Virus record (IMG/VR): IMGVR_UViG_3300010882_000012
Reading direction: 5' to 3' (one strand)
DNA length: 64,000 bases
DNA from: a virus
Lineage: Duplodnaviria > Caudoviricetes
In this document: positions 5,785 through 64,000 of the stretch, piece after piece
Numbering within the stretch: position 1 is the stretch's first letter
How the letters are laid out: each line of letters opens with the position of its first letter
Translations under genes and position numbers: made by a program
The notes under the pieces: model-generated
Seen by the model: only the letters and a program-made list of their open reading frames with translations
Told to the model about the DNA's origin: nothing
Database searches by the model: none

Positions 5785-6792
5785 ATGATAATTAATAATT
5801 GCAAAATAGACCTGTACAATCAAGATTGTTTCAAGGTCTTTTCTAATTTAAAAGATGGTTCAGTTCATCTTGCCATAGTTGATCCTCCTTATGGAATTTC
5901 AATGAAAAACAGTCATTCAGATGATGTTCAAGATTGGGATAAGTTTGAAAAAGAAGAGTTTGTTAAATTCACAACCAAGTGGCTTAATGAACTTTACAGA
6001 GTTTTAACTCCTAATGGAAGCTGCTGGATTTTTTTCGGTCCTACTATGATACATGAAATGTTTGATGCTATTGCACAAACTAAGTTTCACAATTTGTTAG
6101 AAAATTGGATTTGTTATGCAAGAAACAAAGGAAGAGGTGCTAGCAAAAAATTAAAATCATTAAGAGAGGATATCTTCCACTTAGTTAAGGATCCAAAAGA
6201 CTACACTTTTCACAGTGAAGAGTATTTGCGAAGAGTAGTTGCGCCTTATGTTTTAAAAGGTGGAGAAAAAAGAGGATGGGATTATAGAGATGGAGTTCCT
6301 ATGCGCTATACAGGATTAGGAAACATTATGGCTTTTTCTGAGTATGAATCGCGAAAAGGTGCAAAACCAAAAGGGTGGGTTCCTGATATTTCAACAGGAG
6401 AACCATTACAGTTTTCCGGTGAACCTACTGATGTTTGTTTCTTTACACCACCTACTTATCATCATAGATTTGAAAAACAAGTGCATACATGTCAAAAACC
6501 GGTGCAACTATTAACTATGCTAATTTTGATGAGTTCTAAAATGGGTGAAACAGTAATTGATCCGTTTATGGGAAGTGGAAGTACGGGAGTTGCGGCAGTG
6601 ATTGGAGATAGGAATTTTATTGGTATTGAAATGAGTACTGATGTTTTTAATAAAGCAAAGAATTGGTTAGAAAACATCAATTTTAGAGAAGCAGAAAAAT
6701 ACTTAAAGGACCATATCTCAAGTTCTGAAGAAAACTCAAAGTTTCATTATAGTAAAAGAGATTTCATGCCCAAGTTAAAGAAGTTGTTTTAA
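5785..6792 (+). CDS. DNA amino-methyltransferase (beta class, N6A/N4C)
   Basis: DPPY precedes HTCQKP and DPFMGSGSTG. Confidence 0.9.
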   Translation: MIINNCKIDLYNQDCFKVFSNLKDGSVHLAIVDPPYGISMKNSHSDDVQDWDKFEKEEFVKFTTKWLNELYRVLTPNGSCWIFFGPTMIHEMFDAIAQTKFHNLLENWICYARNKGRGASKKLKSLREDIFHLVKDPKDYTFHSEEYLRRVVAPYVLKGGEKRGWDYRDGVPMRYTGLGNIMAFSEYESRKGAKPKGWVPDISTGEPLQFSGEPTDVCFFTPPTYHHRFEKQVHTCQKPVQLLTMLILMSSKMGETVIDPFMGSGSTGVAAVIGDRNFIGIEMSTDVFNKAKNWLENINFREAEKYLKDHISSSEENSKFHYSKRDFMPKLKKLF

Positions 6793-29600: not shown

Positions 29601-30644
29601 TTAAAAATTTTCTACTAATATTTCTTTCCCGTTTTTTTCATAAATATACCAACGATAATTATATCCTAAATTTATACATGCATCCTTTTTAAGGATGCAT
29701 TTTTCTTTTTCTATATTAAAAGTTCTTGTAGATTTTGTTTCTATAATTAAATTATCTTTAGGTATAAAAAAATCAGGTCTATAATAATGAATTATATTAT
29801 TTTGAAGATAAGTTATTGGTCCTGTTAATTTAAAAATTTCTTTATCTTTTATAATTATTTCTTCTTCTTTATAAATTTTTAATAAAGAATTTAAAGTATA
29901 ATTTTCATATCCTTGTAAAGTTATTTCTTTTTTGGATGGTAAAATATAATTTTTTCTATAATAAGAACTTTTTTGTTGTTTTTCAAAAATATCTATATTT
30001 TGCATAGGATTTTCTACTCCTAAATTTTTAAAAAAAGTTTGTTTTGCTTTATTATAAATTTTTTCTTTTTCTTCCTTTGATCTATTTTCCCAAATTTCCT
30101 GTAACATTTTGCTAAATTCTTTTGTTTGTGAATATGTTTTAACTCCATATTTTTCTAAACAAGTTTTTTCTGAATTATCTTTTTTCTGTTGTGATTGAGA
30201 AGTGAATTCTACACCATATTTTTTTAAGCATGTTTGCTTTCCTTTTTCTTTACATTTTTCAGCTTGAAATGTATTTTTAACTCCATATAATTTAAATATA
30301 GTTTGTTCTTTTTTAATAATATATTCTTTATCATTTACCATACATTTAATAGAACACCAAGTAGCAAATTCTCCTTTATTTCTATTCCATGAAGTAATTT
30401 TTCCACATTTTTTACAATATGGTTTTAAATTAAACATAATTATAAAAGCTCTACCAATATAAGGTATTTCTTCTTTGAATTTAGAAGTATATTTTAAAAT
30501 TAAATTTTTTAATTTTTCAGAATTACCTATAGTAGATCTTAATGAAGATCTTGATTTTTTATTTAAAATTTCTAACATAAAATTTTTACATTCATTTTTA
30601 GATTTTATATTTTCAATTTTAATAGTATTTTCATTTTTCAACAT
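29601..30644 (-). CDS. Putative homing endonuclease (KYGV repeats plus PD-(D/E)xK domain)
   Basis: CKKC...CSIKC, KYGV repeats, QGYE, PDFFIP...IIETKS; antisense to neighbours, very AT-rich. Confidence 0.78.
   Translation of the reverse strand: MLKNENTIKIENIKSKNECKNFMLEILNKKSRSSLRSTIGNSEKLKNLILKYTSKFKEEIPYIGRAFIIMFNLKPYCKKCGKITSWNRNKGEFATWCSIKCMVNDKEYIIKKEQTIFKLYGVKNTFQAEKCKEKGKQTCLKKYGVEFTSQSQQKKDNSEKTCLEKYGVKTYSQTKEFSKMLQEIWENRSKEEKEKIYNKAKQTFFKNLGVENPMQNIDIFEKQQKSSYYRKNYILPSKKEITLQGYENYTLNSLLKIYKEEEIIIKDKEIFKLTGPITYLQNNIIHYYRPDFFIPKDNLIIETKSTRTFNIEKEKCILKKDACINLGYNYRWYIYEKNGKEILVENF
29678..29710 (+). terminator. Terminator-like hairpin inside the antisense endonuclease gene
   Basis: ATGCATCCTT-TTT-AAGGATGCAT perfect 10-bp stem followed by TTTTCTTTTT. 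Confidence 0.5.
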
Positions 30645-54264: not shown

Positions 54265-55932
54265 ATGGCTGGTTTCATAGAATACGGTGTAGATGGTACA
54301 ACAAAAAGTTTAGCAGGTAATTTTGGTGTAGCAAAATCATTAAGAAAACTTGCTAGATTAGGAATGGACTATGATGATATGGTCATTAAGAACTCTATGG
54401 CGATAGGGCAAACCGAAAGTGCAATGGGTAATGATGGTTTTATGCCTGTAGAATTTTTGTACTCATTGGCTTATGCTGACATCTCACAAAAAAAGTACAT
54501 TGCTTATTTTGACAAATCTTTAAAAAATCGTAGAGATTACATCCGTAAATTTGCAATGAACTCTGAAATTGATTTTATTCTAGAGACTATTGCAGATGAA
54601 GCCATTGTTTATGATGAACGTAATTTTTTCTGTAGACCATCACTTGCCAACCTCCGCAAAATTCTTTCTGAAGATATTGAGTCAGAAGTAGTTAACTATG
54701 TTTGGAATGCTTTTACTTCAATTTACTATGCACACCATTTTATTGAAGGTTTTGATGCATGGGGTTATTTTAAACAATTTTTAATTGATGGATTTCTTGC
54801 TTTTGAAATCATTTGGGATAAAACAGGTGAAAATATCATTGGTTTTAAAGAGTTAGATCCTCTTTCACTTTATCCAAAAATGGAAAAAGGAAAAGATGGA
54901 TTACTTGAAAAAGTTTGGGTACAATATGAAGACATCCCAGCAATGAAAAGAAAACTTTTTGATTCTCAAATTATCTACCTTAGTTACTCAAAAGCTAATT
55001 TTATTGGTCGTACATCATACACTGAAAGATTAATCCGTTCTTTTAACTTGCTTAGGATTTTAGAGAATTCTCGTATTATTTGGAATATCATGAACTCAAG
55101 TTACAGAATTAAGATGATTGTGCCTATTGGAACTAAATCTCCACAAAAAGCAAAAGAAAGCTTAGGTGAAATGATGGCGCTATACAAAGAAGATATCAAT
55201 CTTGATATGGATTCCGGAGAACTTTCAGTAAATGGTAGACCAAGTATGCAATTTTACAAAAACTACCTCTTTCCAAGTAAAAATGGTGAAGAACCAACCA
55301 TTGAAACAATGGGTTCAGATGGATATGATCTTAGTGATACTGATGCTTTAAAGTACTTTGAAAACAAACTTAGAAGAGACAGTAAAATTCCATTTGAAAG
55401 ATTTGATAGAGAAGGAGGCGGCGGAACTTGGACAAATGATGCAACCTCAATAAACAGAGAAGAAATTCGGTTTGGTAAGTTCATTAACAGATTAAGGTCA
55501 CAATTTAATGAAATTTTGCTAAAACCATTAATTTTGCAAACCTTGCAAAAATTTCCGAGTTTGAAAGATGATGTAATGTTTAGGACAAGTATCGGGCTTG
55601 ATTATGAAGAAGAGAACTTGTTCCAGGAAAGCAAAGAAATGACCATATTTGGTGCCAGAGTAGATTTTGTGAATAATATGGCCAGCCTAATGGTAAGTGA
55701 GCCAGATGACACCGGAATGACAAATGAAGTACCATTTTTTGATGGATTGTTTCTTGCTGAAAGATTTTTGAAAATGAGTAACGCAGATTTGGAATTAAAT
55801 CAAAAGTACGTTAATAGACGTAAGAAAGGACTTGATCCACGGACGGGTAAAAAAATTCCAGCTCCTAAACCAGCGGAAGGTTCTGGTGGAGGTTCTTCAG
55901 ATGAACCGGATAGTATTAGTTTAGATGTTTAA
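54265..55932 (+). CDS. gp20: Portal protein
   Basis: EID...IADEAIV, FLIDG, NLLRILE, SKIP..RF, REEIRFGKFINRLR. Confidence 0.92.
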   Translation: MAGFIEYGVDGTTKSLAGNFGVAKSLRKLARLGMDYDDMVIKNSMAIGQTESAMGNDGFMPVEFLYSLAYADISQKKYIAYFDKSLKNRRDYIRKFAMNSEIDFILETIADEAIVYDERNFFCRPSLANLRKILSEDIESEVVNYVWNAFTSIYYAHHFIEGFDAWGYFKQFLIDGFLAFEIIWDKTGENIIGFKELDPLSLYPKMEKGKDGLLEKVWVQYEDIPAMKRKLFDSQIIYLSYSKANFIGRTSYTERLIRSFNLLRILENSRIIWNIMNSSYRIKMIVPIGTKSPQKAKESLGEMMALYKEDINLDMDSGELSVNGRPSMQFYKNYLFPSKNGEEPTIETMGSDGYDLSDTDALKYFENKLRRDSKIPFERFDREGGGGTWTNDATSINREEIRFGKFINRLRSQFNEILLKPLILQTLQKFPSLKDDVMFRTSIGLDYEEENLFQESKEMTIFGARVDFVNNMASLMVSEPDDTGMTNEVPFFDGLFLAERFLKMSNADLELNQKYVNRRKKGLDPRTGKKIPAPKPAEGSGGGSSDEPDSISLDV

Positions 55933-55938
55933 AAAGAT

Positions 55939-55964
55939 AAAGAGGATTTAAATCCTCTTTTTTT
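55939..55964. terminator. Bidirectional terminator between convergent genes
   Basis: AAAGAGGATTTAAATCCTCTTT palindrome with T run. Confidence 0.8.
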
Positions 55965-57987
55965 ATTTAATTAAAATCACAAATTCTTTATTTTCTCCAA
56001 AGTGACTTTTATTCTTTATCTCTTCAACTATGAAGTCTTTATACTTTTCTGTTTTATCAACTACAAAAAGATAACTTTCACACTTAAAGTTCTTTAAACA
56101 TATATCAATCCACTCATCACAACTTAAATCCTTTTGGCCTTCAAACCAAATCTCTTTCATATTATAAGGAGGGCAAGTAAATAAGCATTCATAAGTTCCT
56201 TCACATTCAAAAACATCTTTAACTTCTAAAAAAACATTTTCTATATCAAAATACTTTACAATTTCTTTAGATTCATTAATTACTATAGAATTTATATCTT
56301 GACCTATATATCTTTTACTTAAAGCAACTGTTCCTAACATTCTCCCTGAATATCCACTAAAAGGATCAAAGATTTCCCGATATTGATCCAGATACTTTTC
56401 TATTAAAGTTCTTGCTAAAGAAGGTTGAAATATAGTTACTTTCGGGGCTATTTTTGAAATATTAAATCCTTCTAAAATTCTGGATGGATCTATATTATTT
56501 TTATAAATAAATCTATTTTTTATAGCTCTAAGTAATAAATCATCTTGAAACCATGCTTCATAAGGTGAAAATTTTGCAACTTTAGATTTCCAAATAGAAT
56601 AATGAAAATGTCTTATAATTTTATCTCCTATTTGTGATTTTAATAAAAAATATTTATAATCTTTTAGTTGTTGGAAACTTGTTTTCAATATTTCATTTGA
56701 ATAAATTGGATATGGAAATTCTATAGATCTACACCAATTAAAAAGATTTTGAATATACTCATCATAATTCATTTCTAAAACATTAAAAAGTTCTTTAATT
56801 CCTTCTTCAAATTGTGATTCTAAAATTACTATAAATTTTACATTTTTTGGAATAAATAATATTCTATTTATATCAGGTTCTATATTTACTTTTTTACCAT
56901 TTTGATCTCCATAATATCCATGATAGTATAATCCATCACATTCAACCAAACAAATTAATTCAGTTTTTTCAATATCTTTAAATATTGCAAAATCAAAAGT
57001 TTTTGTGCAATTATCTCCTTGTATTGTATATAAATGTTCAAAAATTATACCCCTATTTGTTAAAACTTCTATCATTTTCTTTTCTAATTTTGAAAATTTA
57101 GAAGATTTTACTATTTTTGAACGAATTTCTTTTAAACAAAGTAAATATTTAACACCATATTTTTCTAAATTAGATTGAATAATTTTATCCTGAATAATAT
57201 TTGATTGAAATGGCCATTTGGTACCATAACGTTCTAAATTTGTTATATTTGTTTTATCCTGAATTTCTTTACATTTCATTGGATTATCCGTACCATATTT
57301 ATCAAAAAAGGTTTGTTTGCGTTTTTCTTGAAATTGTATAACATTACTAGGATTTTCAACACCATATTTTTTTAAATTTGTAGCAATTACTTTTTCTCGA
57401 ATTTCTTTAGATTGTCCCGGATTTTCAACACCATAATTTTGTTTTAATGTTTTTTTTTGTTTTTCTTGACAAATACTAGATTGAAATGGAAAATCTACAC
57501 CTAATTTATTTCTTATTGATTGTCTTACAGATTCTAATTGATATGCGTTTGTAACACCATGCCGTTCTATTAAAGTATTAATTATTTTTTCTCGAATTTC
57601 TTTAGATTGCCCCGGATTTTCAACACCATAATTTTTTAATAATGTCTGTTTTCCTTTCTCCTGAATTTCTTTACATTTCATTGGATTATCAACACCATAT
57701 TTATTAATAAAAGTTTGTTTTGCTTTTGCTTTTTGGATTATTTTAATACATTCTTTTTTTCCACATGTTTTATAATAATCTTTTATATAAAATTTTAATA
57801 ATTTATTACAATTTAAACATCTTTTTGGTTCTATTAAATTATTAAGTAATAAATAAATTTTTTCTTGATATGTTTCTATATTAGGAAATAAATTATCAAT
57901 TTCTTCTTTATTTTCTAAGTAAAGTTTTTCTTTTTTTGTCCAATGAAAATTAAAAAAATTATTTAATTTTTCTTTTAGTTCTTCCAT
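55963..57987 (-). CDS. Fusion protein: YGV(E/D)NP repeats, Vsr-like endonuclease, SAM-dependent DNA methyltransferase
   Basis: Repeats YGVENPGQSKEIREK; FDFAI...VECDGLYYHG; FDPFSGYSGR, YIGQDIN, FTCPPY. Confidence 0.78.
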   Translation of the reverse strand: MEELKEKLNNFFNFHWTKKEKLYLENKEEIDNLFPNIETYQEKIYLLLNNLIEPKRCLNCNKLLKFYIKDYYKTCGKKECIKIIQKAKAKQTFINKYGVDNPMKCKEIQEKGKQTLLKNYGVENPGQSKEIREKIINTLIERHGVTNAYQLESVRQSIRNKLGVDFPFQSSICQEKQKKTLKQNYGVENPGQSKEIREKVIATNLKKYGVENPSNVIQFQEKRKQTFFDKYGTDNPMKCKEIQDKTNITNLERYGTKWPFQSNIIQDKIIQSNLEKYGVKYLLCLKEIRSKIVKSSKFSKLEKKMIEVLTNRGIIFEHLYTIQGDNCTKTFDFAIFKDIEKTELICLVECDGLYYHGYYGDQNGKKVNIEPDINRILFIPKNVKFIVILESQFEEGIKELFNVLEMNYDEYIQNLFNWCRSIEFPYPIYSNEILKTSFQQLKDYKYFLLKSQIGDKIIRHFHYSIWKSKVAKFSPYEAWFQDDLLLRAIKNRFIYKNNIDPSRILEGFNISKIAPKVTIFQPSLARTLIEKYLDQYREIFDPFSGYSGRMLGTVALSKRYIGQDINSIVINESKEIVKYFDIENVFLEVKDVFECEGTYECLFTCPPYNMKEIWFEGQKDLSCDEWIDICLKNFKCESYLFVVDKTEKYKDFIVEEIKNKSHFGENKEFVILIK

Positions 57988-58080
57988 TTTTTATTATTAT
58001 TTTATAAAATGTTCTCATTCATCTACACTATATTTTAATATATATTCAAATTTTTCAAAAGTTTTTTATATTTTTAAAAT

Positions 58081-58106
58081 AAAAAAGGAGATAAATTTAT
58101 CTCCTT
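58081..58106 (-). terminator. Terminator after tail tube gene
   Basis: AAGGAGATAAATTTATCTCCTT palindrome with T run on the minus strand. Confidence 0.8.
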
Positions 58107-58134
58107 AATTTTATAACATATTGTTATTCAAGAA

Positions 58135-58701
58135 CTAAAGCCATACTTCATCCCAGTCGTCTACTCGTAATTTATATCCAGTTACTCTGTAGATGTCATC
58201 GGATTCCCAATCAACATCATTTGGTCCAACTACTTGCGTCATTGGAATACAAACTTGATAAGTAATCTGTCTAAAGATGTCACCATTAGCATTAAACTGA
58301 GTAACAACCAATGGACCTCCATGATAATCACGTTTCATTCCCCATTTACCTGTCAACGGATTAAAAGCTAAATCTGACCATTGTCTAAGGGCTTTGTAGA
58401 CGTACATTGAATTACTATCATTAAGGTTAACCTCAAATTCTAATGTTAGATCATGAGAATTTTCCATTGGTTTACCACCAACATAGCTTCTGTGTGCACC
58501 TTTGTATGATTGTTGTTGGACGTTCATATCTCCATCTTGACTACCAAGAAGACCATCAATTTTGATGATGTTGTTCATTACTAATGGCCAGTCTGATATT
58601 CCACTTGGAGGAGTTATCATTACGTCAAAGTAAGCTTTAAACACCGGATCCCAGTGTTTCATTGCTGCAATTGAGTTTTTATAGTGAGGTAAACCTGCCA
58701 T
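58135..58701 (-). CDS. gp19: Tail tube protein (gp19-like)
   Basis: 188 aa directly after sheath; LRQWSDL..NPLTG, DY, G...R pattern. Confidence 0.8.
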   Translation of the reverse strand: MAGLPHYKNSIAAMKHWDPVFKAYFDVMITPPSGISDWPLVMNNIIKIDGLLGSQDGDMNVQQQSYKGAHRSYVGGKPMENSHDLTLEFEVNLNDSNSMYVYKALRQWSDLAFNPLTGKWGMKRDYHGGPLVVTQFNANGDIFRQITYQVCIPMTQVVGPNDVDWESDDIYRVTGYKLRVDDWDEVWL

Positions 58702-58781: not shown

Positions 58782-61700
58782 TTATGCTACTGTAAATCCT
58801 CCGGAGCTAATTGCACCAGTTTTCAATACAGTTACACGGTTAATCACTTTTTGTAATCCTCTTGCTGGTTCAATACCGATGTCGATAATACCAACATTTT
58901 GGTCAATAACTTCTGGAGTGTTGTTAGTTTCGTCCATAATTACCATAAAGTCGTAAATTCCACCTGCATTTCTTACAGTTTGCAAGTATCCATCTACAAT
59001 TGTTCTAATTTCAAGGCGTGTGCTAGCATCATTAAATTCAAAGATGTAGTTGCTCAAAATATCCTCTACAGTTTCTTCAATAGTAATCAACAAGTCTCTC
59101 ACATGCAAGTTGTTAAAAGCTGTCAAAGTACGTTGATAAGCTGTTTGGTTGCCATAGATCATAGGTCCAGTTTTCTTTGTGGTAATAATTGGATTTAATC
59201 CCATCGGTTCAATCCATTCACGGTCTGTTAACAAGTATTCATACTCAAGACCTGTCAATTTAGGATTACTCAAAATACCACGTCTTGGGCCAGCTGTAAT
59301 TACGTATGGTTGTCCATTGATGAACTTACGCACAAAGTTGTTTGAAACGTCAGCTGCTGGCGGAATCATTTTGTTTTTGTTTTGTTCGTAGATCTTCAAG
59401 AATGGAGTGAAAACACCACAGAATCTTGCACCATTTTCATCATCTGGTAAACTAAATCTGAATGATGGTCCTAAGCTTAAGTTACCACCTGTAGAGATGT
59501 ACTCAGTTCTTAATAATGGTTTTGGTTCTCCAAGATCTGGTCTTGGTTCATCAGTAAATCTAGGATCTGTTGATTGGATAAACTCTGAAATTGATGGAGC
59601 ATTAAGTAAAGCCATACATTTCAGTCTGCGTTTTGCAAGACGTGAAAGAATTGCTTTAGGTCCCATCATAGGTTCCAAACCACCTGCAAAAGTATCTACT
59701 ATGTAACGGAAAGAAATCAATTCTTTGTCAACTAAAGTAGCACCTAAATTAGTATCTTCAATTACGCCATAAATCTTCCAAAGTTGGTCACGACCACCAG
59801 GCATATGATAAGTTGTAATTGTAAAACCATTAAGAGCCGTAAATTGAAGATGATGTGCTATTTGTGGAATTGGTAACATTCTGTTAACAAAACTTACGCC
59901 TGCTTCATCAGTGTAAATTTCAACCGGTTCATTAACTTGAATTTCAAATTCAGTAAATCCTGTAGTTGCATTAGCACGTTTAATTTTATTGATAACCTTA
60001 GTCAATCTTGTTTCACCACCAGCTACATTAATATCCACGGCTAAATAATGCCCTACTTCAATATCAAGTGCATTTGCTGCATTTACTCTGAAAATTGTTT
60101 TGCTAGCATTCAAAGTACCATCAATAACAGGGACGTTTTGTTGGATTTTTGCTGCTGCCGATTGTATTGCGATGTAAGTTGGTGCTTGTAATGGATCACC
60201 GTCTCTATCTACTATCAAACCATGTTCTTCTGCAATATCTAACCATTCATCAACTAAGTGGTCTGTTTGAATACCTGCACGAATCCAAGAACCTGTATCC
60301 ATTTTGATAAGATCTGCAAAAGTATCAATTGGTGTATTCAATTCTGGATTAGCCCATTGTCTAATTCTTTGAACAGGAAGACCATAAAGACCAATTGCCG
60401 GCGCGAATGAGAAGTATCTAAGATCGGTAAGTTGTTCATTTGCAAACGCATAGTCACCATCAATTATTGAACGATTAACAATTTCGTCAAACAATTTGTT
60501 ACCAGGATAAACATCAATAGAAAATTTTTCACCTATTGCATTTTGCCATACGTCTTCGATGTAAGATGATTTGAAAATGAATTGCATACCTTCTTCAAGA
60601 TTTGGCATATAGTTCATTGCTGCTTCACCATTACAGTAAGTTACTTGACGATTTTCTAAAGTATTAGGTTGGGCTATACCACCAACAATAGGGCTGGCTG
60701 GAATACCAATTTCACCATTCAACCAATACTTAAACCAATTTAAGTGGATATCTGTTGTTGGTACATCTGCCATTAATTCTTCAAGAGTTTTGTAGAACTC
60801 AACTCTGTAATCAGTGTAAGAAACAGATGGATCTGGAATCATAGCTGGTACACTTGGATCAACTATTTCGCCTTGTGCTACCGGATTTGGTAAAAATTCA
60901 TACTCATTTTCTGTTCCTGGAGTTTCATCCCATACTTGTCCTTCGCCTCCTGGAAATGTTATACTATCCCAAGTTCCATTAAGTACTGTAGGTTTCCAAG
61001 CTGGATCTGGAATCATCGATGGATAAGCTAGATTAGGCACCATTGTTACAGTACTTGCTGCTTCACCGTCTTTTACTACCATGTAACGATTGTATCCTTT
61101 AACGTAAATCATGTCGAACTGACTGATAAACTGAGGAGGTCTCATTGTAGGTCCGTCAAGTGCAAAAGTATTATCAGGAAATACCATAGTGAGCTTTTGC
61201 TCAGTCGGATCAATATCTTTAATTGTAATACCATCCCAAATACCTGACCACTCTTCATTCTTAGTAGGATTTGAAAGCACTAATTCTAAAGCATTTCCAG
61301 TGCTTGTTACACTATCAACTTTAAGATATCCATTTTTGTTCAAAATAGCACCAGGGAAAGTTCCACCTTCACCAGTATCAGGATCAGCATCACCTGCTTC
61401 CATTACTCTTGAACCATATGCTTTAATCAAACTGTTAGAATTCAATACTGTTGCTAATTTAGTGTAATCTGAAACAGTAAATTGTTGTCCAGGAGCTAAC
61501 ATCTTAGGTCTTGGAATAACTAAAGTATTGAAGAACGGGCTTGAATTGTTTGTGTATGGTAATGATTTTACAAAAACATTTTGTTGTTTACCATTTACTT
61601 CATTAAAATCGGGTTCTGCAAAGTTAGTAGTTTCTGTTTCATCAATAATTGAATAATGAGAACTAAAAAACAACTCATCTGTAATAGGTCCAACATAACT

Positions 61701-62684
61701 CAAAAAGTTCATTGAAGATTTAGTAGAACCAATTAAAGAGTGTCCTATTAAGTCAAGTTTCCAATCTGAATTTTCATAGTCATCAAACATTGCACGATTT
61801 ACTACACAGAAAAGACCTGTTGTTCCTACTGTATTGTTCACAATATTTTCAATAAAATGGTTAACACCATTTCTATCTGTAAAATCTGGAATAATACAAC
61901 CTGTCATGTTTGCTACTAAAGTTACAGTATCATCCGTAATAAAGTACTCAATCATTTCGGTTTTAATACCATTAGCATCAAAGAATCTTGAATACAATGG
62001 ATCAATTGATAATGTTTCATAATTAGTCCAATCTCCTTCAACTACAATAACATCCAAAAAATAGTCTGAGATATAGTCAAATTCCTTAATAAAATCAGGA
62101 ACATTACCAGATCCATAGAATTCTCTTGCTGTAATATCAAAACCTTTAATGTTTCTTGCTTTTCTGATTAAAATCGAAAGTGGTCTTTGACTAAAATTAG
62201 TAAAAGAGAATAGCATATCTCTTGTAATTGGATTTAAATCTACAATAGCTTGAAAATAGCTTGTATCTGGAAACCAGAATCTTTCTTTATTGTAAAAACT
62301 TGCTATCAATTCTCTCGAAACATTTGCATTATCCTGTGTAATACTTGTCGAAAATGGACGGTACTCAATTTTGTCTCCTGTTGGCGTATTATCAAGAGCC
62401 AACAAATTCAAGGCATAAACAGGACCAGTTTGAAGACATGTCTCAATACTTCTATGGAAGAATGAACCTCTCTTTTCAAGAATAGTATCAACTTCTCCAA
62501 ATATCTGACGTGCTGATTTAACATCTCTTAAAAACACCGGCGCGTTGAATGGACCTCTACGAGAAAAACCAACTACAAGTCTAATCGTTTGAGTACTCAC
62601 TGTAATACTTTCACTCGCGTCAAATTCCACAGTATAAACACCTGCTGCTCTGAACTGATTAAGGTCTAAAGTTAATTTAGCCAT
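58782..62684 (-). CDS. gp18: Contractile tail sheath protein with large internal insertions
   Basis: AGVYTVEFD, GFSRRGPFNAP, AGPRRG, NPI, FEFND, DETNNTPEVID. Confidence 0.93.
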   Translation of the reverse strand: MAKLTLDLNQFRAAGVYTVEFDASESITVSTQTIRLVVGFSRRGPFNAPVFLRDVKSARQIFGEVDTILEKRGSFFHRSIETCLQTGPVYALNLLALDNTPTGDKIEYRPFSTSITQDNANVSRELIASFYNKERFWFPDTSYFQAIVDLNPITRDMLFSFTNFSQRPLSILIRKARNIKGFDITAREFYGSGNVPDFIKEFDYISDYFLDVIVVEGDWTNYETLSIDPLYSRFFDANGIKTEMIEYFITDDTVTLVANMTGCIIPDFTDRNGVNHFIENIVNNTVGTTGLFCVVNRAMFDDYENSDWKLDLIGHSLIGSTKSSMNFLSYVGPITDELFFSSHYSIIDETETTNFAEPDFNEVNGKQQNVFVKSLPYTNNSSPFFNTLVIPRPKMLAPGQQFTVSDYTKLATVLNSNSLIKAYGSRVMEAGDADPDTGEGGTFPGAILNKNGYLKVDSVTSTGNALELVLSNPTKNEEWSGIWDGITIKDIDPTEQKLTMVFPDNTFALDGPTMRPPQFISQFDMIYVKGYNRYMVVKDGEAASTVTMVPNLAYPSMIPDPAWKPTVLNGTWDSITFPGGEGQVWDETPGTENEYEFLPNPVAQGEIVDPSVPAMIPDPSVSYTDYRVEFYKTLEELMADVPTTDIHLNWFKYWLNGEIGIPASPIVGGIAQPNTLENRQVTYCNGEAAMNYMPNLEEGMQFIFKSSYIEDVWQNAIGEKFSIDVYPGNKLFDEIVNRSIIDGDYAFANEQLTDLRYFSFAPAIGLYGLPVQRIRQWANPELNTPIDTFADLIKMDTGSWIRAGIQTDHLVDEWLDIAEEHGLIVDRDGDPLQAPTYIAIQSAAAKIQQNVPVIDGTLNASKTIFRVNAANALDIEVGHYLAVDINVAGGETRLTKVINKIKRANATTGFTEFEIQVNEPVEIYTDEAGVSFVNRMLPIPQIAHHLQFTALNGFTITTYHMPGGRDQLWKIYGVIEDTNLGATLVDKELISFRYIVDTFAGGLEPMMGPKAILSRLAKRRLKCMALLNAPSISEFIQSTDPRFTDEPRPDLGEPKPLLRTEYISTGGNLSLGPSFRFSLPDDENGARFCGVFTPFLKIYEQNKNKMIPPAADVSNNFVRKFINGQPYVITAGPRRGILSNPKLTGLEYEYLLTDREWIEPMGLNPIITTKKTGPMIYGNQTAYQRTLTAFNNLHVRDLLITIEETVEDILSNYIFEFNDASTRLEIRTIVDGYLQTVRNAGGIYDFMVIMDETNNTPEVIDQNVGIIDIGIEPARGLQKVINRVTVLKTGAISSGGFTVA

Positions 62685-62727: not shown

Positions 62728-62806
62728 TTACTATTTATTCCAGATTATTTTAGAATATCTAATAATTTTTTAGCCTAACATCTTTTACTATTTATTCCAA
62801 TATTTT
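62728..62806 (-). promoter_or_regulatory. Tandem putative late promoters upstream of sheath
   Basis: Reverse-complement AAAATAATCTGGAATAAATAGTAA (62728-62751) and AAAATATTGGAATAAATAGTAAAA (62783-62806). Confidence 0.78.
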
Positions 62807-64000
62807 TTCAACTTTTTCACTTTTTATTAAAATCACAAATTCTTTATTTTCTCCAAAATTACTTTTATTTATTATTTCTTCAGTAATAAAATCTTTATAT
62901 TTTTCTGTTTTATCTACAACAAAAAGATATGAAGAACATTTAAAATTCTTTAAACATATATTTATCCATTCATCACAACTTAAATCTTTTTGTCCTTCTA
63001 TCCAAACTTCTTTAAGATTATAAGGAGGACAAGTAAACAAACAGTCATAAGATCCTTTTGATTTTATTATATCTTTACATTTTAATTGAACCTTGTTATT
63101 TAACTTTAAAAAATCTATCATATTTTTACTTTCTTTTATATGAATTTCATTTATATCTTGACCAATATAATTCTTATTTAAAGAAATTGTACCTAACATT
63201 CTACCAGAATAACCTGAAAATGGATCAAAAATTGTATTAAATTCATTAAGATATTTTTCAATTAATTGTTTAGCTCGCCATGCTTTAAAAGTTGTTACTT
63301 TCTGACAAATTTTTGAAATATGAAATCCTTCTAATATTCTATTTGGATCAATATTATTTTTATAAATAAGTCTATTTTTAATAACTTTCATAAGTAATTT
63401 ATCATCAAACCATGCTTCATATGGACTCAAATTATCTTTTTTTGCATGCCAAATAGAATGATGAAAATGACGAATAAGATTTGAACCTATTAAAGCTTTT
63501 TCTTTAAACAAAGTATATTTACAAAGTTCATCAAAACTTTTTTGTAAAACTTTTTCATTATATTTAGGATATGGAAATTCTATAGATCTACACCAATTAA
63601 AAATATCTTGAATATACTCATCATAATTCATTTCTAAAACTTTAAAAAGTTCTTTAACTCCTTCTTCAAATTGAGTTTCTATTATAGAAATAAATTTTAC
63701 GTTTTCAGGAATAAAATTTAATCTTTCAATATCACGTTCTATATTTACACGAATACCATCTTGATCTGAAAGATAACCGTGCCAATATAATCCATCACAT
63801 TCAATAAGAGCTTTTAAATTATTTTTATCATCAAAAATTGCAAAATCAAATTCTTTTATTTTATTTTTATCTTCAATTAAATAATGATGTTCAAATTTTA
63901 TATTTCTATTAATTAATAATTCTATAAGTTTTTTTTCTAAACGAGAAAATTGTCCTTCTTTTGTAACTTTATCTCTAAAACTTTTTGAATGCATAAGATG
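62792..64000 (-). CDS. Second endonuclease-methyltransferase fusion (5' end off window), paralog of 55963-57987
   Basis: IECDGLYWHG, FDPFSGYSGR, FTCPPY; frame stays open to the window edge. Confidence 0.78.
   Translation of the reverse strand, partial: HLMHSKSFRDKVTKEGQFSRLEKKLIELLINRNIKFEHHYLIEDKNKIKEFDFAIFDDKNNLKALIECDGLYWHGYLSDQDGIRVNIERDIERLNFIPENVKFISIIETQFEEGVKELFKVLEMNYDEYIQDIFNWCRSIEFPYPKYNEKVLQKSFDELCKYTLFKEKALIGSNLIRHFHHSIWHAKKDNLSPYEAWFDDKLLMKVIKNRLIYKNNIDPNRILEGFHISKICQKVTTFKAWRAKQLIEKYLNEFNTIFDPFSGYSGRMLGTISLNKNYIGQDINEIHIKESKNMIDFLKLNNKVQLKCKDIIKSKGSYDCLFTCPPYNLKEVWIEGQKDLSCDEWINICLKNFKCSSYLFVVDKTEKYKDFITEEIINKSNFGENKEFVILIKSEKVEKILE

Follow-up and report, generated by a model that had tools for sequence, protein, structure and literature searches.

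The gene P0001 lies on the minus strand of a 64,000-nucleotide (nt) stretch of DNA (hereafter the window, with positions counted from its first letter) from the IMG/VR virus record IMGVR_UViG_3300010882_000012. The record itself, a 146-kb fragment that is ~56% complete, extends past the window. P0001 is a single uninterrupted open reading frame (ORF) in a T4-like morphogenesis block, and all its domains are carried on one chain: a zinc ribbon, an array of Hef-type repeats, a Vsr-like nuclease and an S-adenosylmethionine (SAM) methyltransferase module. We tentatively read it as a homing nuclease that may bring along its own protective methyltransferase. Its parts are the following.

55963..57987, minus strand: P0001, fusion of a Hef-type nuclease with a methyltransferase module, ORF of 674 residues (translation table 11)
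57742..57825, minus strand: zinc ribbon, residues 55-82 (C57, C60, C75, C80), identified by its motif and by short strands at residues 56-71 of the model
57106..57741, minus strand: nine helix-turn repeats of ~23 residues with a YG(V/T)xNP turn, residues 83-294 (DUF7487)
56773..57105, minus strand: Vsr/EDxHD-like PD-(D/E)xK nuclease domain, residues 295-405, identified by structural matches
56920..56997, minus strand: nuclease core motifs FDF (331-333) and E-C-D-G-x3-H (349-356)
56428..56772, minus strand: helical N-terminal part of the methyltransferase module, residues 406-520, which always co-occurs with the Rossmann part
55966..56427, minus strand: Rossmann-type SAM methyltransferase core, residues 521-674, identified by structure and profile matches
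56341..56370, minus strand: motif I FDPFSGYSGR (SAM binding), residues 540-549, its D and R unchanged throughout 150 sequences
56164..56178, minus strand: motif IV T-C-P-P-Y, residues 604-608, with a Cys where D, N or S is usual

An earlier sequence-only reading of this DNA had placed a zinc site and YG(V/T)(D/E)NP repeats on one chain with a nuclease and a methyltransferase, and both motifs are present at the coordinates given above. The AlphaFold model of the 405 N-terminal residues has a predicted local distance difference test score (pLDDT) of 94.1. The zinc site, with the spacing C57-x2-C60 ... C75-x4-C80, is kept as CxxCGK...CxxxC in 110 homologues. The ensuing array comprises five strict YG[VT][DE]NP copies and four degenerate ones, spaced by 23, 23, 19, 23, 23, 23, 23 and 23 residues; even one strict motif occurs in just 1 of 20000 shuffles of the P0001 protein. 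Pfam analysis reports a hit with DUF7487 (PF24308; 182.9 bits for a cut-off of 27), which assigns P0001 to this family, and PHROGs analysis reports phrog_3339 (1.4e-31) and phrog_12131 (4.2e-30), both labelled "homing endonuclease". The repeats recur, as found by tblastn, in genes of Dickeya, Campylobacter, E. coli and Salmonella phages, and the E. coli and Salmonella phage genes among the matches listed are annotated as homing endonucleases. The repeat array and the zinc ribbon are presumably the DNA-targeting part of the protein.

The Vsr-like nuclease, previously proposed from its FDF...ECDG signature, is confirmed by its fold. Residues 296-405 are modelled as an α/β domain whose best structural matches are with the catalytic domain of I-Bth0305I (Z 9.4, 90 residues aligned), with Vsr (Z 9.1, 100 residues aligned) and with the DUF559-like NGO0050 (Z 9.1, root-mean-square deviation 2.0), and which thus has a Vsr-type nuclease fold; the match with the BpuSI nuclease is weak (Z 5.5). 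Sequence identity to the I-Bth0305I/Vsr-type structures is 13-17%. Among 319 homologous domains, E302, D332, D/E349, D351, H356, D361, D372 and R375 are kept in 282-310, with D332 in 307, D/E349 in 310, D351 in 304 and H356 in 301. D332, D/E349, D351, H356 and D361 (288-310 out of 319) are the candidate counterparts of the catalytic residues of Vsr or I-Bth0305I.

The 275 C-terminal residues, hereafter the module, adopt a class I SAM methyltransferase fold (model pLDDT 96.3), and the motifs FDPFSGYSGR and IGQD that had led to the proposal of a Rossmann methyltransferase are intact. Its best structural neighbours, amino-methyltransferases with a (D/N/S)PP(Y/F/W) motif, are METTL5 (Z 15.8), aTrm11 (14.9), PH1948 (14.6), TGS1 (14.4) and Trm14 (14.2). 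At the sequence level its neighbours are DNA methyltransferases: PADLOC reports mad2 (2.5e-7) as well as Type II methyltransferases, and the best PDB match of the family profile is a DNA N4-cytosine methyltransferase (8s9n, E 0.0024), the TSPPY of which aligns with TCPPY. P0001 itself has no match with PF01555 at E <= 1 in the Pfam scan and is therefore not a member of that family by this measure; 29 out of 76 relatives match PF01555 at E <= 1e-3, and the relatives listed individually fall both below and above its 26.7-bit cut-off.

Conservation within the module was followed in 150 representatives, one per cluster at 50% identity. Motif I reads FDPFSG(F/Y)SGR, with D541 and R549 invariant, and the acidic residue of motif II (YIGQD) is an Asp in at least 90% of the representatives, so that both the SAM-binding motif and its acidic partner are in place. 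The unusual CPPY motif IV noticed earlier recurs across the family as T-C-(P/S)-P-Y, the Cys being found in at least 90% of the representatives, and the Glu four residues past motif IV (E612) is invariant or nearly so. The module thus departs from the classical motif IV, in which Asp, Asn or Ser precedes P-P-(Y/F/W). The Cys has an isosteric counterpart in the Ser found in N4-cytosine methyltransferases, but C5-pyrimidine methyltransferases put their nucleophile where it sits. From the TSPPY-like motif, our best guess is that the modified base would be N4-cytosine. The short C-terminus is real as well: the chain stops 66 residues past motif IV, and neither the model nor the structure matches reveal a separate target-recognition domain in the module. 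Altogether the module is intact and under selection, yet outside the classical motif IV definition. Additional Cys residues near β4-αD-β5 (C630, C636 and the Cys of SCDEW) are kept in at least 90% of relatives; the Cys residues 601, 605, 623, 630 and 636 of P0001 fall at about 56080-56187 of the window.

A domain-architecture search, suggested in the sequence-only reading as a check, was made with the module alone and matched 1352 clusters (281 at E <= 1e-30), nearly always together with homing-endonuclease parts. The module is nearly always C-terminal, in proteins of 400-830 residues. It follows a Vsr-like nuclease in 98 of 149 representatives, Hef repeats devoid of a detectable nuclease in 26 and other N-terminal extensions in 20, and it is free-standing in the last 5. 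Further partners are NUMOD3, helix-turn-helix (HTH) modules, zinc ribbons and DUF723. In the ESM Atlas, the whole 275-residue module (TM 0.83-0.96) is found fused to LAGLIDADG_2 endonucleases or to DUF723, or free-standing, in clusters that are 90-100% viral where taxa are recorded. A scan of 185,579 species genomes returned the module at 9 loci only, every one of them in a bin of a metagenome-assembled genome. The isolated phages of the phage collection contain no close module homologue, the only matches there being with uncultured Lak megaphages (37-39%). The homologue of the Prevotella phage Lak-A2 (L040:1520..3424, 634 residues) comprises two zinc ribbons, a Lys/Glu-rich linker and a module with TCSPY, and has no recognisable Vsr-like nuclease. 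The module is therefore essentially restricted to phages.

Free-standing forms were also considered in their genomic context. Five of them (266-272 residues) were examined; each is found in a T4-like phage, downstream of its gp23 capsid gene, and is preceded by an ORF of 257-320 residues that overlaps its start by 8-23 nt. These two-gene cassettes are located at L041:4046-5813, L043:4097-5801, L044:3235-4813, L046:3058-4819 and L048:3073-4810; in L041, as in L042, the query translation is obtained only with TGA read as Trp. The N-termini of the upstream ORFs vary, being NUMOD3 or HTH-like, and their C-termini share a conserved, nuclease-like domain with the pattern S-x-PE ... CDFYI ... LFIELN-x-W-x-HGG. 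An hhalign comparison of this ORF with the profile of the Vsr-like domain gives E 0.074 despite alignment of the motifs, which is only suggestive of homology between the two domains. In a FastTree phylogeny built from 193 methyltransferase modules, forms of like architecture group together, although with many switches: the minimum number of changes between free and fused forms is 15 (mean of 36 with shuffled labels), and that between forms with and without a nuclease is 27 (mean of 64), both counts being rough owing to many weakly supported forks. To judge from these architectures, the coupling of the module with homing-endonuclease parts is too regular for accident. Its fusions involve no fewer than three builds, unrelated to one another, of nuclease or DNA binder, and otherwise translational coupling links it with a nuclease-like ORF.

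The surroundings of P0001 bear on its mobility. The genes and signals next to it, and the related genes found elsewhere in the window, are as follows.

54265..55932, plus strand: portal gene (phrog_213), convergent with P0001
55939..55960, both directions: two-way hairpin terminator separating the stop codons of P0001 and of the portal gene
58085..58106, minus strand: hairpin terminator after the tail tube gene, upstream of P0001
58135..58701, minus strand: tail tube gene, upstream of P0001 on the same strand
58782..62684, minus strand: tail sheath gene (1300 residues), upstream of P0001 on the same strand
62792..64000, minus strand: paralogue 2 (634 residues), directly upstream of the sheath gene; it runs past the window end and is whole at L002:1471..3375
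29601..30644, minus strand: third Hef-type gene (347 residues, G+C fraction 0.195), the sole minus-strand gene of its block
5785..6792, plus strand: canonical PF01555 N6/N4 DNA methyltransferase, a separate gene (138.5 bits)

Terminators stand on both sides of P0001, which is therefore a separate transcription unit. The P0001 protein, ending in ...EFVILIK, does not repeat the last heptapeptide of the tube protein, the end of which reads ...DDWDEVWL. Its G+C fraction is 0.229, as compared with a window mean of 0.301 (standard deviation 0.026), and the lowest-G+C 2 kb of the whole window (0.223, from position 56101) falls inside it. Of the loci that contain a related tube gene, 35 in IMG/VR and 43 in metagenomes, none has a copy beside sheath and tube; they are only 39-81% identical and hold no near-identical pair with and without the element. 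These 78 loci devoid of a copy show the sporadic presence of Hef-type homing endonucleases. In the nearest relative, L052 (sheath end 94% and tube 81% identical), there is likewise no copy beside the tube gene, which is followed (L052:357-5133) by genes of 320 and 97 residues and then by a tape-measure-like one that exceeds 935 residues. Compared with window positions 55963-58701, synteny breaks exactly at the P0001 element; the 320-residue protein of L052 has no match within the 146-kb record of P0001. P0001 thus looks like a mobile insert.

P0001 and paralogue 2 bracket the sheath and tube genes and are 60% identical overall. Identity is unevenly spread along the chain: 34% for the N-terminus and zinc ribbon, 32% for the repeat array (in which repeat numbers differ), 62% for the nuclease, 66% for the helical part of the module and 71% for its Rossmann part. 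DNA similarity between the two copies is confined to the nuclease-methyltransferase coding part (74% at the nt level) and is absent from their flanks, and a promoter-like motif common to their upstream regions is not significant (3 matches for 0.7 expected; 3 of 100 shuffles). Beyond the window end, an ORF of 54 residues (L002:3375..3539, minus strand) shares 1 base with the paralogue 2 start codon (TAATG); it reads by eye as ribbon-helix-helix-like, has no Pfam match and no counterpart at P0001, and could be a controller of the element. The third Hef-type gene comprises a zinc ribbon, four YGV repeats and a different, nuclease-like tail of the PD..ExK type (RPDFFIP..IIETKS), and is devoid of a methyltransferase. 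The repeats thus appear to be shuffled between nuclease types.

The reading that we favour, to which we grant somewhat less than an even chance, is that P0001 would be a homing nuclease with its own site-directed protective methyltransferase, in other words a single-chain selfish element resembling a restriction-modification system. The zinc ribbon and the nine Hef-type helical repeats would find the DNA target, and the Vsr/EDxHD-like domain would cut it. The compact methyltransferase module, without a target-recognition domain of its own, would be tethered to the same targeting array and would modify a base in or beside the nuclease site. The carrier genome, in which the site is not disrupted by the free-standing gene, would thereby be immune, and unmethylated sites in co-infecting relatives would be cut and then repaired from the carrier, leading to homing or marker exclusion. 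The partners of the module are the customary DNA-targeting modules of homing endonucleases, and the simplest reading is that the shared array would bring both activities to one site. Insertion of a free-standing endonuclease gene leaves its target intact, which is why immunity through methylation would suit such enzymes. The models of the two domains are of high confidence and show the expected folds, and D541, R549, the Asp of IGQD, T-C-x-P-Y and E612 in the module, as well as E302, D332, D/E349, D351 and H356 in the nuclease, are conserved family-wide. The comparative data support a functional partnership of nuclease and methyltransferase, and DNA is the likely substrate of the module. That methylation blocks cleavage by P0001 is plausible, if still short of probable.

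Several observations weigh against this reading. Motif IV lacks the canonical D, N or S, so that one cannot count on an exocyclic amine as the methyl acceptor, and the nearest solved structures to the module are RNA methyltransferases. Hef-type nucleases devoid of a methyltransferase are common, including the one at 29601..30644 of the window, and protection by methylation is therefore no general need of the family. The Lak phage and DUF723 forms combine DNA-binding modules with a methyltransferase and have no recognisable nuclease. Lastly, the repeats of the two paralogues are very unlike while their methyltransferase modules are 66-71% identical, a pattern that fits a tethered methyltransferase of low specificity but would fit equally a methyltransferase target unrelated to the nuclease site.

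Cleavage by a number of Type I, III and IIG enzymes is licensed by SAM, and the module might likewise be a working part of the nuclease, either flipping bases or clamping DNA or acting as a SAM sensor that licenses cleavage, with methylation incidental. The nearly universal fusion or translational coupling, the want of a recognisable target-recognition domain and the non-canonical motif IV all agree with such a role. We nevertheless consider it unlikely: the module also occurs with DNA-binding modules alone, with no detectable nuclease, and conservation extends beyond the SAM pocket to the whole catalytic loop T-C-x-P-Y-x3-E. Somewhat less likely again is a methyltransferase that would be beneficial cargo, for instance guarding phage DNA from host restriction. 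It would merely ride on the nuclease, and the sequence it methylates would bear no relation to what the nuclease targets. Orphan methyltransferases are common in phages, free-standing forms of the module are numerous, and the modules of the two paralogues are far more alike than their targeting repeats. On the other hand, cargo would have no need of fusion, every one of the five free-standing forms examined has a nuclease-like ORF coupled to it, and the module, without its own target-recognition domain, is associated with DNA binders of the homing-endonuclease type. The phage also encodes a separate canonical PF01555 methyltransferase, hence the module is not its sole methylase.

Degeneration is frequent among free-standing homing endonucleases, and the Cys at the catalytic position could be taken as a sign of it, one or both domains then being relics of a decaying or domesticated homing endonuclease without coupled activities. 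We regard this as very improbable, since key residues of both domains are ~90% or more conserved across hundreds of diverged sequences and the motif IV Cys is itself conserved and not random. Least probable of all, in our view, is a module acting on RNA or another non-DNA substrate, or a pair of the Dcm-Vsr kind that would couple modification with repair of deamination products. Its top structural neighbours are indeed RNA amino-methyltransferases, the nuclease is Vsr-like, and in E. coli vsr is partnered with dcm. The profile neighbours, however, are DNA methyltransferases (PF01555 in the 29 of 76 relatives, 8s9n, PADLOC mad2 and Type II), and the partners are homing-endonuclease modules, LAGLIDADG included. 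Repeat-bearing genes of Dickeya, E. coli and Salmonella phages carry homing-endonuclease annotations, those of Dickeya being called Hef-like (PMC3296691).

A bolder variant, which we hold to be improbable, would place the TC(P/S)PY module in a new catalytic class among the DNA modification enzymes of phages. The invariant Cys would then work by a chemistry unlike that of classical amino-methyltransferases, e.g. nucleophilic attack on a pyrimidine, and the module, having no specificity of its own, would rely on interchangeable DNA-binding arrays of homing endonucleases to direct it to single sites. If so, it would be a portable, programmable immunity mark for homing nucleases, and it would account for free-standing homing endonucleases keeping an intact target in their own genome. 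Free-standing homing endonucleases leave their target uninterrupted, and the escape of the carrier is usually ascribed to sequence differences. If the favoured reading of a self-protecting homing nuclease is right, a nuclease with its own tethered methyltransferase would be a different and general answer to self-cutting of the carrier, and the line between homing endonucleases and restriction-modification systems would be blurred. The module family is large (>1000 clusters) and confined to uncultured large phages. Its strangest feature, the invariant motif IV Cys, is an enzymological question in its own right, and targeted methylation could gain a tool from a methyltransferase that is small, has no target-recognition domain and takes its aim from modular DNA binders.

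P0001 resembles several known systems in part. With Hef-type endonucleases (DUF7487) it shares the zinc ribbon, the YGVxNP array and the position of a free-standing gene between T4-like structural genes. The Dickeya phage LIMEstone1 copies (F-Lim III/VII/VIII/X) have been described, one of them adjoining the tail tube gene (PMC3296691), and the Hef of phage U5 cleaves nrdB (PMC2988022); the link between P0001 and the U5 protein is an indirect one, through annotations and family models. In contrast with P0001, the described Hef-type members are devoid of a methyltransferase. I-Bth0305I, a phage enzyme and the prototype of the Vsr-like EDxHD homing family (PMC3239194), has, like Vsr, the same nuclease fold and a putatively equivalent acidic/His set, but it is intron-encoded, has another DNA-binding region and no methyltransferase. 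The module aligns with the PF01555/8s9n β-class methyltransferases over motifs X/I (F..LA...DPFxGSG...Y.G.D) and the TSPPY-like loop, whereas its motif order, I before IV, is that of the γ class and of Trm11, and Cys replaces Ser/Asp. In principle there is a parallel with Type IIG/IIC enzymes such as MmeI and BpuSI, in which a PD-(D/E)xK-type nuclease is N-terminal to an amino-methyltransferase-fold domain in one polypeptide; MmeI, a single-chain nuclease-methyltransferase, is documented to protect itself by its own methylation (PMC2731913). These are bacterial defence enzymes with NPPY, and their C-terminal target-recognition domain sets both specificities, while P0001 is carried by a lytic-type phage, uses homing-endonuclease repeats for targeting and has TCPPY. 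P0001 lies outside Type IIG/IIC because it has neither the γ-class NPPY nor a C-terminal target-recognition domain, is phage-only and has a homing-type nuclease. No description of the nuclease-module architecture was found in the open-access literature searched, outside which most subscription journals lie. Single-chain nuclease-methyltransferases being known (Type IIG/IIC, PMC2731913), the principle is not new but this build is: a single-chain nuclease-methyltransferase made from homing-endonuclease parts and a minimal methyltransferase of the Cys type.

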